Shown here one piece after another: positions 48,747 through 54,150 of a stretch of 64,000 bases of DNA (position 1 is its first letter; each line of letters begins with the position of its first letter). The notes under the pieces were generated by a model. That model saw nothing but the letters and a program-made list of their open reading frames with translations, did no database searches and was not told the DNA's origin. The stretch lies in assembly GCA_000165345.1 (NCBI GenBank), contig CM000436.1:768001-832000 (forward strand). The letters are read 5' to 3'. The position numbers and the translations under genes are program-made.

Positions 48747-50303
48747 ATGACAGAACAGAATAATGATTTAGATTTCAAAGATGACAATATCAAAGATTTG
48801 CAAAGAAAGGAGGATTTAGAGGCAAATATAATTTCTCAAAACTACAGTATAAAAATTAGAGATACATCAAGAAATATGAGTTATACGAATAATAGAAGAG
48901 ATGAAATTTTCATGCAGTTACAAACAGAATTGTTTGATATTCTTTTAGAGATTTATAACATAATTCCTACATGGGGCTCATTTAAAGAAAACTTCTATTT
49001 TCATTGGAAGAGAATTATTGGTGCCTGCAATTTCAAAGATCTTCATGCATATAGGCTAATTTTTAGATGCTTGGGAAATTTACGCCCTTCTTCAATGCCT
49101 ATATTTATTCTAAGGCCAATAATTAAACAGCTAGATGAGTATAGAAAAATTTCAGAGCCTGAATATTCTCCATCTAATTTTGAATTTAACCCAAATATAC
49201 ACAGGAGCTTAGCTACAACTTCTAATGGCCCAATTGCCATGCTACAAAATTCACATCCCGTTAAAACATGTGCCCAAATTCAAAGTAAAAAAGAAATATT
49301 GCTTGAAGATAAAATAGGACGAGATTTTTTCTCCGATAAATGTAATTCTAGCTTTTTTCATGAAATTATTAAAGAAAATGCAAAATATTCAGGATTAGTA
49401 TTATCAGGATTAAATGAAGCAAATGTCATTCCATTTTCGTTACTAGAAAATGATATATTCAACTCTGTGCCGTCACAAAATAATAGTAATCTAATTGATA
49501 ATATCTACAATTCAATAAATAAGAATTTCTATTTTTCGATAACTAGACAACAAAACGGTAGTTTTACAAATGATAATGAAAAATTAGCCGAAGACAAGAA
49601 GATAAAAAATGAGCTAATTGATAGAAAGGAGCACATTCTTTCGGACGATTATAATTCTAATGAATTTATTAATAATTCATTGGTTATTTCGAATAATTGG
49701 AATTCAAACTCTGCAGTCTCTTCGCCTTATGGTTCGGTTTGCACTGCACCAACACTTTCACCTACAGAATATAAAATTGAAGGGCCTATAATGGCAGCTT
49801 TTCAACATATTCAAGCAGTAGCAGTTGCAACAGCAGTTGCAAATAATTCTAAAAACAAACTAAACTCCGCAGGTAATTTATCAAACGAACAAAATACAAT
49901 ACAACCAAAGAAAAGACCGAGGAGGAATGGTGAGATTCAAGGGGTATATTTCGACAAAATACGCAAACTTTGGCGTGCAAACTGGAAAGAAAATGGACGT
50001 GTAAAAACAAAAGGGTTTTCAGTTTTTCAATTTGGAGATGAGGGCGCAAGACAAAAAGCTATTGAATATCGTAAGAAAATGGAAAAAGAATTCTATGTCG
50101 TGCCTAATACAAAGCTTTCTAGAAGTTCAAGCAATAGTGGAACTATCTATATTAATACAGAAAAGACGTTTCAAAACAGTATCTCACCTAAAAAAAAAGA
50201 TATTGAACTTAGTTCAAATTTAAATAACACTTTGAGCAGTTCAAAGCTAAACTCTGAAAACACAAAATTATCAGAAAACACCAACTCTAATTTTAACAAT
50301 TAA
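48747..50303 (+). CDS. ApiAP2 transcription factor (single AP2 domain near the C-terminus)
   Basis: AP2/ERF-like domain ..GVYFDKIRKLWRANWKENGRVKTKGFSVFQFGDEGARQKAIEYRKKMEKEF.. at about aa 395-450 (nt about 49930..50100). The rest is low-complexity N/S-rich, as is typical for apicomplexan AP2 factors. ATG verified at 48747. Confidence 0.8.
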   Translation: MTEQNNDLDFKDDNIKDLQRKEDLEANIISQNYSIKIRDTSRNMSYTNNRRDEIFMQLQTELFDILLEIYNIIPTWGSFKENFYFHWKRIIGACNFKDLHAYRLIFRCLGNLRPSSMPIFILRPIIKQLDEYRKISEPEYSPSNFEFNPNIHRSLATTSNGPIAMLQNSHPVKTCAQIQSKKEILLEDKIGRDFFSDKCNSSFFHEIIKENAKYSGLVLSGLNEANVIPFSLLENDIFNSVPSQNNSNLIDNIYNSINKNFYFSITRQQNGSFTNDNEKLAEDKKIKNELIDRKEHILSDDYNSNEFINNSLVISNNWNSNSAVSSPYGSVCTAPTLSPTEYKIEGPIMAAFQHIQAVAVATAVANNSKNKLNSAGNLSNEQNTIQPKKRPRRNGEIQGVYFDKIRKLWRANWKENGRVKTKGFSVFQFGDEGARQKAIEYRKKMEKEFYVVPNTKLSRSSSNSGTIYINTEKTFQNSISPKKKDIELSSNLNNTLSSSKLNSENTKLSENTNSNFNN

Positions 50304-50452: not shown

Positions 50453-51078
50453 TTAATAATAAAAGAGTTCATATTTCAACTTACGAAATGCCTGTGTGAG
50501 CACGCAAAATTTCATCAGTTGTTTTCCAAATTTTAGTGGTTAGTTGCTTCAATAATTCCTCTGCTTCCTCCTAAAATTTGTCATATAAAAATGTTGCTAA
50601 ATTTGATTACTTACCGGTGTGGGAGTATCTTCTTGACCTTCTGAGTTCTGGTTCAACTCCTCGCTCTCGTTGTCCTCTTGATCGTCATCATTCTCAATAT
50701 CATTAGACGACTGTATCAGCAGCAGCCTAAAAGCCAATAAATCGATTTGGTAATGAGTGAAAACTCACCTTTTATTATTGAATAAATTAGATAAATCTTG
50801 AATATCGTTTTCCAATTCTCCCAATGAAATGAAAGCTTGAAGTTTCTCTGCATTATAAAAATAAGGTTTCTTTCGCACAATATTCACGAATCCTTACCTT
50901 GTAAATGCGATTCTGGAGCTTGAACAAGAATCTCTCTCATTTTATTAACTGTTGACTTCAATTCTTCAACAATATTCGAGGTCCCTGCAATTGGTTCAAT
51001 TTTGCCAGGGGCTGCAGAAGAAAGTGAAAATATTATACAAAGAATAGTTAAAAAAAAGACTCTCATATCAAATGTCAT
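50453..51078 (-). CDS. Small acidic secreted protein (about 163 aa), 4 exons; family unknown
   Basis: Exons 51078..50898, 50847..50769, 50726..50615, 50569..50453. Introns 50897..50848 (50 nt, GTAAGG..AG), 50768..50727 (42 nt, GTGAGT..AG), 50614..50570 (45 nt, GTAAGT..AG). All phases are consistent. Protein: signal peptide MTFDMRVFFLTILCIIFSLSSAAP.., a helical region, an acidic stretch (..DIENDDDQEDNESEELNQNSEGQEDTPTP..), and C-terminus ..EEAEELLKQLTTKIWKKLMKFCVLTQAFRKLKYELFYY. The track shows only exon 1. The 3' end is ambiguous because another GTAAGT lies inside the last exon. Confidence 0.55.
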
Positions 51079-51176: not shown

Positions 51177-52244
51177 TTAGTTAATTTTTGATTGGTAAAT
51201 TATTATATCAACTAATTTTTTAATTCCGATTGAAGATGGCGACTGGGGGAATTTTTCGCAGATAGAGAGACCCAAATCGCATACGTACAGTAATTCTTTA
51301 TCCCATGGTATTTTATTAAGATATTCTACTTCCATATTGTCACACATATCTTTAACTGAAGAATCATGCTCAGCATTTTTAAAAATCATCCCCATATTTT
51401 CAACAACCCCAAGGATATTTAAACCCACTTTCTTACAAAAATTAATTTCCTTCCTAACATCTTGTAGTGCAATTTCTTGCGGAGTGGTTACGATCAGAGC
51501 TCCATTCACATTTGAACCATTTAAATATGAAACTATAGAGAGATGCTCGTCGGAAGTACCTGGAGGAGTATCAATGATTAAGAAGTCTAATTCACCCCAA
51601 ACTACATCTGAAAGGAACTGTTTTATTAACCCATTTTTTTTTGGGCCTCTCCAAATTACAGCATCATCAGATTGAGGAAGTAAAAATGCAGTGGACATAA
51701 CTGAGAGATTATCATTAACATATACTGGGGACCAGCCATTCGCAGAAATGTGTACATCATTGCCTTGCACTCCCATCATTTTTGGTGCGGATGGGCCGCA
51801 AATATCGATATCTAAAAGCCCAACATTAAATTTTTTCGATGATAAACACCATGATATTTGCGAAGATATAGTTGATTTTCCTACACCTCCTTTACCAGAT
51901 AGAACCAAAATAATATTTTTTATTTTTGATAAGTTTTCGATATTCTCTGTAGGCTTTTTCTTTGCTTGTCCAGAAGCACATATTAGTGCATTTGGGCATC
52001 CTGCACAAGAGTCTGCGATTCCTGCATCTGGAGAATCAACTCCTACGCAATTGCCAATTTGAATATTAAAATGATTTTGGTATTTAGAATTAACTGAATC
52101 AGTTTTTATATAAGAAATGGAAAAAATAATAGATTTTAAATAGTTTATTGTTAACCTGGAAAATGTCTTGAAATAATCCTTAAATATAATACCAGATATT
52201 AGTCCACCGAAGAAAATTGCAATTCTATTAGAGGCTATCTTCAT
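51177..52244 (-). CDS. NBP35: Cytosolic Fe-S cluster assembly P-loop NTPase NBP35/NUBP1, with N-terminal hydrophobic extension
   Basis: The track ORF starts at TTG 52286; the first ATG is 52244 (MKIASNRIAIFFGGLISGIIF..). N-terminal Cys cluster ..DSCAGCPNALICASG.., P-loop ILVLSGKGGVGKST, LDIDICGPS, WRGPKKNG, DTPPGTSDEHL. Nearly collinear with human NUBP1. Confidence 0.9.
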   Translation of the reverse strand: MKIASNRIAIFFGGLISGIIFKDYFKTFSRLTINYLKSIIFSISYIKTDSVNSKYQNHFNIQIGNCVGVDSPDAGIADSCAGCPNALICASGQAKKKPTENIENLSKIKNIILVLSGKGGVGKSTISSQISWCLSSKKFNVGLLDIDICGPSAPKMMGVQGNDVHISANGWSPVYVNDNLSVMSTAFLLPQSDDAVIWRGPKKNGLIKQFLSDVVWGELDFLIIDTPPGTSDEHLSIVSYLNGSNVNGALIVTTPQEIALQDVRKEINFCKKVGLNILGVVENMGMIFKNAEHDSSVKDMCDNMEVEYLNKIPWDKELLYVCDLGLSICEKFPQSPSSIGIKKLVDIIIYQSKIN

Positions 52245-52275
52245 AATTGCATTTAAAAGTAAATTTATAACAGAA

Positions 52276-52284
52276 TTTTGGCGC
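52276..52284. promoter_or_regulatory. E2F-like site TTTTGGCGC upstream of NBP35
   Basis: Matches the E2F consensus TTTSSCGC. It lies about 32 bp upstream of the NBP35 ATG on the gene's 5' side. Confidence 0.3.
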
Positions 52285-52448
52285 AATAAAATTTCAAAAA
52301 AAATATTATTTCAATTATTATGAGTAGATTAGATAAAGATAAAGAGTTTTCAAGGTGAGTTATAGATATATAGAAAATAGCGTTTTATTCATTATTTTGT
52401 CTTAACTTTCAACTTTATTATTCAGTATTACCTTACCTCTAGGTTTTA

Positions 52449-53555: not shown

Positions 53556-54105
53556 TTACAAAAGCTTATACTCTCCTGTAATTTCATCTATTAATTCTGA
53601 TGGACCTGGACCAATTGCTATCGCTGTGTACTCTCCTGCCGCAATTTGCGTCCTTCCAGCGTCCTTGATTAAACAACTTGTAATATTTTTTTCTTTTGCT
53701 CTCCTTTCAGATTCAAGTAGCTCTTTGAAGCTAACTTTCAAGACAACTTTAGCCTGCCCAGATCTTTCCCAGGCTTCTACCATTTTGGGGTGTCTTTTTA
53801 TCGCTTTTTTATAAGCACCTAGTACTGCGTGCCCACACTGTGAAGCAACTTTTCCTCTACCCATTCCTAAATCTGTTCATAAGCGTGATGACAGTTTAAT
53901 ATTTAACATTTAACTTACCTTGTCTTATGCAAATTGTCATTTTAAAATCGGAATGGTGCCTTAAATTCTCATCTTCAATCTGAATCAACTCGTTTTTTTC
54001 TCTCTTAAATTTTACAAAACTAAATAAAATCACAAAGGAAAATATTGAAATAATAAAAGAATATGAACATTTAATTCCATCACGATATATCTCAATTATA
54101 TTCAT
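53556..54105 (-). CDS. PTH2: Peptidyl-tRNA hydrolase 2 (PTH2), 2 exons
   Basis: Exons 54105..53919 and 53872..53556. Intron 53918..53873 (46 nt, GTAAGT..CAG), phase 1. The track ORF starts at TTG 54114; the first ATG is 54105. The junction produces ..[28 protein letters not shown].., matching the PTH2 core (..VVRTDLGMGKGKIAAQCSHAALG..). N-terminal TM anchor (FIISIFSFVILFSFV). The track splits the gene into two ORFs. Confidence 0.8.
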
Positions 54106-54150
54106 ATTTATCAAAACAAATGAATTCCGCCAACATGATTTTTCATTAAA

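Follow-up and report, generated by a model that had tools for sequence, protein, structure and literature searches.

The 64,000-nucleotide stretch of the Cryptosporidium parvum genome analyzed here (the window: assembly GCA_000165345.1, contig CM000436.1, positions 768,001 to 832,000 of the forward strand, with coordinates counted from its first letter) carries on its minus strand the gene for NBP35, the counterpart of animal NUBP1 and a scaffold of cytosolic iron-sulfur assembly (CIA). In the Mrp/NBP35 family, two C-terminal Cys residues, the CPxC pair that ligates a bridging [4Fe-4S] cluster, are regarded as a hallmark and as essential for function. The C. parvum protein (CpNBP35) lacks them. 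The loss is real, wider than first thought and no peculiarity of Cryptosporidium, and it fits the published pathway models awkwardly: those for Toxoplasma and Plasmodium still draw a yeast-like [4Fe-4S] assembly on NBP35. We consider it probable (about 60%) that the membrane-anchored NBP35 of this group would hold only its N-terminal cluster, the labile cluster being carried elsewhere.

The site of the loss is the following:

51357..51401, minus strand: deletion junction ENM-G-MIFKNAEHDSS at the canonical F-[VI]-C-P-x-C site, located by alignment; it contains no Cys.

From the ENM strand onward, canonical proteins read ENMSGF[VI]CPxCxxES-IF...GGA, whereas CpNBP35 reads ENMG-MIFKNAEHDSS. MAFFT placed an 11-column gap after ENMG, over the canonical F-[VI]-C-P-x-C-x-x-E hairpin, and HMMER set the residues GMIFKNA opposite the GFVCPNC of Cfd1. 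The downstream GG(A) motif is likewise lost. The stretch from ENM to the conserved M-C is free of Cys, and a single CxxC, the N-terminal CAGC, occurs in the entire protein. The first-pass annotation of the window had already reported that the CPxC pair was missing, allowing that a CxxC might turn up displaced by a few residues. The gap of 11 residues lies at the bridging-ligand site, and both the alignment and scans of the whole protein ruled out a shifted CxxC. A frameshift, an intron or a mis-assembly hiding the motif was ruled out as well: the open reading frame (ORF) is continuous, and the other two frames at the junction are filled with stops and encode no CxxC there. An artefact in the sequence was discarded on the basis of 13 other Cryptosporidium sequences that have the same junction. 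The CPxC/CxxC feature of a canonical bridging-cluster scaffold is absent; therefore, CpNBP35 is an NBP35 by descent that is not classed as such a scaffold.

The distribution of the deletion was established by scoring the segment after ENM in approximately 400 homologues, which were collected by sequence searches, a profile search of 1.84 billion representatives and a follow-up search seeded with one haemosporidian-like match. Every apicomplexan and chrompodellid NBP35 retrieved has a deletion of 10-11 residues with shared boundaries. The CxxC is absent from all 14 retrieved Cryptosporidium sequences, from the gregarines Lankesteria, Gregarina, Protomagalhaensia and Porospora, from the coccidia Toxoplasma, Hammondia, Neospora, Besnoitia and Cystoisospora, and from Cardiosporidium. 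It is also missing from every retrieved Plasmodium cluster and related haemosporidian-like sequences, from a piroplasm-like protein (NCBI KAK2196208.1), and from the chrompodellids Chromera velia (Cvel_19821) and Colpodella angusta. The core dinoflagellates Symbiodinium and Alexandrium keep it, as do Perkinsus olseni, the ciliate Tetrahymena, animals, fungi and amoebozoans. On a species tree that joins chrompodellids with apicomplexans and has the dinozoans as their sister group, this sequence distribution indicates that the loss is as old as the common ancestor of Apicomplexa and chrompodellids and precedes mitosomes. A single-gene neighbor-joining tree built without the loop columns placed the deletion-bearing sequences in one clade with a bootstrap of 14/100, and Myzozoa received 47/100. 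Since these values are weak, the argument for a single loss comes from the accepted species tree together with the common boundaries of the deletion.

The first-pass annotation had tied the remodeling of the protein to a mitosome-bearing parasite. This part of its proposal did not hold: both the anchor discussed below and the loss of CPxC are more widely distributed, and the latter occurs even in Chromera, which is free-living, photosynthetic and without a mitosome. Thus, the loss is not an adaptation to the mitosome or to the life of Cryptosporidium, and that explanation was rejected on the phylogenetic distribution.

Two observations outside the clade concern the same region of the protein. 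In the parasitic syndinian Amoebophrya sp. A25 (P0184, CAD7940455.1) and in P0160 the CxxC is absent and the junction is a different one (SGFLGVTSEGVKKMC, ENMSGFLGVTSEGVKKMC). The Amoebophrya NBP35 groups with the dinozoans, and this placement, together with a junction of its own, suggests that the CxxC was lost there in a second, independent event, in another parasite. Plants, oomycetes, diatoms and brown algae (P0004, P0013, P0019-21 and others) have a long insertion in place of a CxxC directly after ENM. These insertions indicate that the CPxC hairpin is a recurrent site of remodeling in lineages that lack Cfd1.

Full-text searches of the literature, together with PMC12674569, PMC11476691, PMC11838916, PMC7980591, PMC6105332 and PMC6282951, yielded no published statement of the clade-wide loss, in a coverage that does not include Aw et al. 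2021. The closest statement concerns P. falciparum NBP35 (PfNBP35), which is said to conserve "a CXXC motif" for iron-sulfur binding (PMC11476691). A P. reichenowi cluster sequence (P0349) was recognized as the falciparum-type NBP35 because the published forward primer for PfNBP35 codes for a peptide that it contains. Apart from the N-terminal CEGC this sequence has no CxxC, the canonical C-terminal motif being deleted. Consequently, the CXXC of that report cannot mean the canonical bridging motif.

The N-terminal cluster site and all motifs for nucleotide binding and dimerization are in place:

51978..52049, minus strand: ferredoxin-like CX13CX2CX5C (C66, C80, C83, C89), predicted N-terminal [4Fe-4S] site, identified by motif and alignment.
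51873..51899, minus strand: deviant Walker A motif SGKGGVGKS with the signature lysine, in invariant alignment columns.
51789..51812, minus strand: DIDICGPS, a switch I-like motif, identified by alignment.
51543..51587, minus strand: Walker B/switch II block DFLIIDTPPGTSDEH, identified by alignment.

All four Cys residues of the N-terminal site are invariant in alignments A1 and A2, as are the Walker A, DIDICGPS and DFLIIDTPPGTSDEH motifs; across the deletion-type set, the only other invariant Cys residues are C149 and C270. The invariance of the N-terminal cluster residues argues that the iron-sulfur chemistry was retained. The CX13CX2CX5C arrangement is the mark that sets NBP35 apart from Cfd1 (PMC10108433; PMC6105332), and the cluster it holds was described as stably bound in work on the human and yeast proteins (PMC10108433).

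The identity of the gene is well established by descent. The Pfam domain PF10609 (NUBPL/ParA iron-transfer NTPase) matched residues 121-360 of the 369-residue ORF with E=2.6e-83. Together with the intact Cys cluster, P-loop, DIDICGPS and DFLIIDTPPGTSDEH, this match bears out the earlier assignment of the protein as an NBP35 orthologue collinear with NUBP1. The domain, the deviant Walker A, the switch I motif and Walker B place it in the Mrp/NBP35 subfamily of SIMIBI P-loop NTPases. Its CX13CX2CX5C and its closest relatives, which are NBP35 proteins, place it in the NBP35/NUBP1 orthogroup; the top matches in sequence searches were NBP35-annotated proteins of Cryptosporidium, Toxoplasma, Cardiosporidium and Perkinsus. 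It does not belong to Cfd1/NUBP2, as an N-terminal Cys cluster is present and CPxC absent, the reverse of Cfd1. Nor does it belong to HCF101, as Pfam found NTPase-type domains only, without the N-terminal DUF59/MIP18 and the C-terminal DUF971 that lie on either side of the core in HCF101. The closest solved structure is that of Cfd1 (6g2g), by sequence (E=3e-66) and also by fold, and an AlphaFold model of the protein (mean predicted local distance difference test score, pLDDT, 79.6) matched the Cfd1, ApbC and archaeal Mrp structures. Among Cryptosporidium orthologues, mean identity is 90% in the P-loop core and 30% in the linker that precedes the Cys cluster, a difference that points to purifying selection of considerable strength and rules out that the gene is in decay.

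The coding sequence (CDS) was delimited as follows:

51177..52244, minus strand: complete C. parvum NBP35 CDS, 355 residues plus stop, from the first in-frame ATG.
52245..52286, minus strand: 14 in-frame codons 5′ of the ATG, probably 5′ untranslated region, included where the ORF lister took a TTG as the start.

The first-pass annotation had given the gene the whole uninterrupted ORF, 51177..52286, which counts 369 residues from the TTG. The ORF was confirmed, and the 5′ end of the CDS was moved to 52244: no in-frame ATG is present upstream of that position within the ORF, annotated orthologues begin at M1, and the equivalent Met is the start in nine other Cryptosporidium species. The product of 355 residues is 100% identical to C. 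parvum EAK89489.1/QOY40075.1, annotated as "MRP like MinD family ATPase" and named "Cytosolic Fe-S cluster assembly factor NUBP1 homolog" in UniRef. The gene is an ordinary one, and its existence, its annotation and its type of anchor are already known.

Between M1 and the Cys cluster lie two further features:

52182..52223, minus strand: hydrophobic core IAIFFGGLISGIIF, residues 8-21, putative signal-anchor with F-x2-G-x3-G, identified by hydropathy and alignment.
52053..52181, minus strand: basic, weakly conserved linker, residues 22-64.

The extension had been described as a hydrophobic helix within about 80 extra residues. The helix was upheld and the length was not: the first Cys follows 65 residues, which exceeds the short-form NBP35 proteins by about 50. 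The core IAIFFGGLISGIIF is the sole strongly hydrophobic stretch of the protein, and its membrane character was gauged with hydropathy scales (Kyte-Doolittle and a sum of insertion free energies). Its maximum Kyte-Doolittle mean over 19 residues is 1.68, compared to 1.66 for the validated transmembrane domain (TMD) of Toxoplasma gondii NBP35 (TgNBP35), with which residues 8-21 align. The proposed parallel to the Toxoplasma anchor was sustained, the two proteins having F-x2-G-x3-G in common, and the alignment speaks for a putative transmembrane segment. This motif is present in 63 of the 88 anchor-bearing homologues, and a bare GxxxG in 18 more. Across Cryptosporidium the anchor is 59% conserved, whereas the linker behind it reaches 30%; the 15 residues after the anchor have a net charge of +2. 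AlphaFold predicted one helix over residues 4-56, and pLDDT falls below 50 at residues 47-64, in the linker. A start downstream of the hydrophobic segment, which had been seen as a possible objection, was ruled out from the sequence: behind M1 the frame has no Met before residue 156, which lies past the Cys cluster and Walker A, so that no functional protein can begin downstream of the segment.

By descent CpNBP35 is of the TgNBP35-type anchored form: a hydrophobic segment homologous to the TMD of TgNBP35 lies N-terminal to its Cys cluster. Since GxxxG is typical of packing between helices, the myzozoan NBP35 anchor may dimerize or dock onto another membrane protein. The N-terminal anchor has been published as conserved throughout myzozoan NBP35 and validated in Toxoplasma (PMC12674569), and a TMD was predicted for PfNBP35 too (PMC11476691). 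For apicomplexans and chromerids, C. muris among them, Pyrih et al. predicted that NBP35 has an N-terminal extension of mitochondrial type (PMC7980591). Since this conservation is already in print, the anchor half of the present observations is known biology on an annotated gene.

The arrangement that we favor would combine the anchor with the loss of the bridging site. [quoted passage not shown] The anchored dimer would bear N-terminal clusters only, because neither NBP35 nor Cfd1, absent from the group, supplies CPxC ligands, and it would serve as the ATP-driven, Dre2/Tah18-dependent entry point of CIA. The transient, transferable cluster would be borne by another CxxC protein, likeliest HCF101; alternatively, the N-terminal site of NBP35 might pass its cluster on directly.

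Several published results are compatible with the steps of this proposal. Two reports describe Cfd1 as absent from Apicomplexa and from SAR (stramenopiles, alveolates and Rhizaria) generally (PMC11838916, PMC7980591); thus, a heterodimer partner cannot supply the missing ligands in the canonical manner. In human NUBP1 the N-terminal [4Fe-4S] cluster was still assembled when both CPXC Cys residues were mutated, its source being two [2Fe-2S] clusters of GLRX3 and electrons from anamorsin/Dre2 (PMC10108433). Tah18 and Nar1 were found at the T. gondii mitochondrion, where NBP35 is anchored too (PMC12674569). HCF101 is predicted to be cytosolic in apicomplexans and chromerids and was shown to be so in T. 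gondii; it is predicted to be mitochondrial in Perkinsus and was shown to be so in a ciliate and two diatoms (PMC7980591). In T. gondii it is essential for CIA, and C-terminal signals recognized by the targeting complex were reported for apicomplexan HCF101 in an alignment that includes the C. parvum protein (PMC11838916). Recombinant PfNBP35 and the P. falciparum HCF101 homologue were reported to form a complex in vitro (PMC11476691). The boundary of the clade that lost CPxC, as scored here, coincides with the published one for the move of HCF101 to the cytosol, and it is chiefly this match that argues for a division of labor between the two proteins.

The missing ligands might instead have been replaced. 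In this case NBP35 would still scaffold a transferable cluster, using non-canonical ligands at a labile N-terminal site or newly gained Cys residues, for which the window offers a candidate:

51258..51281, minus strand: derived C-x6-C pair C322 and C329 (CDLGLSIC), candidate ligands, identified by alignment.

The pair is found in intestinal Cryptosporidium, and an aligned C-x5-CC (CQQGVGCC) in all Plasmodium (P0348-P0358); the second Cys stands where the animal NUBP1 sequences of the alignment have an aromatic residue, Phe. The pair arose separately in Cryptosporidium and in haemosporidians, the same two groups that lost GG(A). The published Toxoplasma models keep NBP35 as the scaffold (PMC12674569), and PfATM1 was reported to pass a [4Fe-4S] cluster to PfNBP35 (PMC11476691), both of which are in line with such a role. 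However, the extra Cys residues are absent from C. serpentis, from Toxoplasma and other coccidia, from gregarines and from the chrompodellids Chromera and Colpodella, so that they provide no general solution for the clade. The invariant Cys residues listed above for the deletion-type set offer no other pair beyond the N-terminal four and C149 and C270, and the stability described for the human and yeast N-terminal cluster speaks against a labile site there. We regard a scaffold of this kind as unlikely. From the alignment, the C-x6-C/C-x5-CC residues might serve as a substitute metal site or might be coincidental, and it is a possibility that Cryptosporidium and Plasmodium evolved such a site independently.

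Another alternative is that NBP35 no longer handles a transferable cluster and is only an ATP-dependent membrane receptor or adaptor coupling the mitosomal ATM1 exporter and the Tah18/Dre2 electron chain to later factors of CIA. The loss of the bridging site from a protein with intact ATPase motifs would suit this role, as would the reported binding of PfNBP35 by the N-terminal extension of PfATM1 (PMC11476691) and the co-location of Tah18 and Nar1 with NBP35 in T. gondii noted above. Nonetheless, an adaptor of this sort would leave the invariant N-terminal cluster Cys residues unaccounted for, and a stable TgATM1-TgNBP35 interaction was not found in Toxoplasma (PMC11476691). This alternative is improbable.

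Returning to an anchored NBP35 with N-terminal clusters only, a number of points weigh against it. The coincidence of the CPxC and HCF101 boundaries amounts to one evolutionary event and is suggestive only. The localization, topology and cluster content of CpNBP35 are all inferred, and the CxxC of Cryptosporidium HCF101 itself is assumed from the description of the family. The two bridging Cys residues were described as functionally essential in yeast (via PMC11838916); a working NBP35 without them would need a mechanism beyond those demonstrated so far. Published Toxoplasma models place [4Fe-4S] assembly on NBP35 itself (PMC12674569). Finally, on hydropathy alone the N-terminal segment is borderline as a membrane-spanning helix: its hydrophobic run of 14 residues is the shortest among 11 myzozoan proteins, the others having 18-29, and its best 19-mer scored +3.6 kcal/mol in an unweighted sum of a published membrane-insertion scale.

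These last figures would also agree with a segment that is no mitosome anchor. It might instead be a signal-anchor for the endoplasmic reticulum, a signal that is cleaved off or an amphipathic element at the membrane periphery, with the protein residing elsewhere. The uncharged run is followed directly by K-D, the insertion energetics are marginal on this simple scale, and the mitochondrial prediction for C. muris Nbp35 was of low confidence (PMC7980591). The case for a real anchor is comparative, and includes the alignment with the TMD, the motif, the positive flank, the conservation and the helix model, all of which point to a membrane segment. Its position, F-x2-G-x3-G and positive C-terminal flank match those of the validated TgNBP35 anchor, and it is better conserved than its surroundings. 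Moderate hydrophobicity and a basic flank are, moreover, what is expected of outer-membrane signal anchors. A non-mitosomal element is accordingly rated very improbable.

If NBP35 is anchored and without a bridging cluster, a broader scenario can be entertained, which we hold as a tentative possibility. The CIA scaffold may have been split in two in the ancestor shared by Apicomplexa and chrompodellids, NBP35 staying at the organelle surface as an entry module with its N-terminal cluster only and a formerly mitochondrial, CxxC-bearing HCF101, without its presequence, becoming the cytosolic carrier of the labile cluster in place of the C-terminal site of Cfd1/NBP35. If true, the split would be a natural experiment in which the supposedly essential bridging cluster of NBP35 proved dispensable. 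The deletion of CPxC offers a rationale for HCF101 turning into a cytosolic CIA factor in the same clade. A clade-wide deletion in a protein that is still essential, in the absence of Cfd1, bears on which scaffold site builds and hands over the cytosolic cluster, and tractable parasites offer a direct way to test what the bridging cluster of NBP35 does. Cryptosporidium NBP35 would belong to a very small set of candidates for the outer surface of the mitosome. The axis of iron-sulfur export and CIA is thought to be the reason why the mitosome was kept.

Among the known systems the closest is TgNBP35 (TGGT1_280730), an orthologue with 56% core identity to CpNBP35. It was described as a CIA scaffold anchored in the outer mitochondrial membrane (Aw et al. 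2021, via PMC12674569, PMC11476691) and reported to be essential for parasite survival (PMC12674569, PMC11476691) and important for the stability of the cytosolic iron-sulfur protein ABCE1. Both proteins have a hydrophobic anchor with F-x2-G-x3-G, CX13CX2CX5C and the ATPase motifs, and in both the CPxC hairpin was removed by the same deletion (ENMSSSVFASVNPDG in Toxoplasma and ENMGMIFKNAEHDSS in C. parvum). They differ in the number of residues before the first Cys (65 in CpNBP35 and 114 in TgNBP35) and in the length of the hydrophobic run (14 and 25 residues, respectively). CpNBP35 is also without the G-A remnant of GGA and has gained C329. Its target organelle would be the mitosome, as opposed to the mitochondrion of Toxoplasma.

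Yeast and human NBP35/NUBP1 stand at the entry of CIA, as CpNBP35 does, and have the same fold, a deviant Walker A and a ferredoxin-like [4Fe-4S] site at the N-terminus. However, they are soluble and have CPxC, with a labile [4Fe-4S] cluster bridging homodimers or heterodimers with Cfd1 (PMC10108433), whereas CpNBP35 has no CPxC, no Cfd1 in its lineage and an N-terminal anchor. Plant and stramenopile NBP35 proteins resemble it in that Cfd1 is missing, the scaffold is presumed to be homodimeric and the region after ENM is remodeled; unlike CpNBP35, they have a long insertion instead of a deletion and no anchor. For the plant protein AtNBP35, binding of a labile bridging cluster at the C-terminus is still reported (PMC3721309). 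The NBP35 proteins of Symbiodinium, Alexandrium and Perkinsus have an N-terminal hydrophobic segment, G-x3-G and the same core, but CPxC was kept. The paralogue HCF101 likewise has the P-loop core of Mrp/NBP35 and takes part in CIA in T. gondii (PMC11838916); it differs in its DUF59, its DUF971, its C-terminal targeting signal and a CxxC with which the family is described (PMC7980591, PMC11838916).

The genes around NBP35 in the window are unrelated housekeeping genes, coding for an ApiAP2 factor, Fcf2, RNase H2 subunit C, PTH2 and a condensin II subunit. The features closest to the gene are the following:

48747..50303, plus strand: ApiAP2 transcription factor (AP2 domain, E=1e-14), converging on the 3′ side of NBP35.
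50884..51078, minus strand: ORF of 64 residues with a signal-peptide-like start, MRVFFLTILCIIFSLSSAAP, and no Pfam match.
53556..53864, minus strand: PTH2 peptidyl-tRNA hydrolase ORF, with a Pfam match that starts only at profile position 13.
53896..54114, minus strand: separate ORF just upstream of PTH2 and on the same strand, with the hydrophobic stretch FIISIFSFVILFSFV.

The ORF of 64 residues is located about 100 nucleotides downstream of the NBP35 stop, between the ApiAP2 gene and NBP35, and ends at a GGTAAG donor-like site; judging from these elements, a small secreted protein may have its first exon here. The ORF at 53896..54114 may in turn be an N-terminal membrane-anchor exon of PTH2, joined to it across a short intron.

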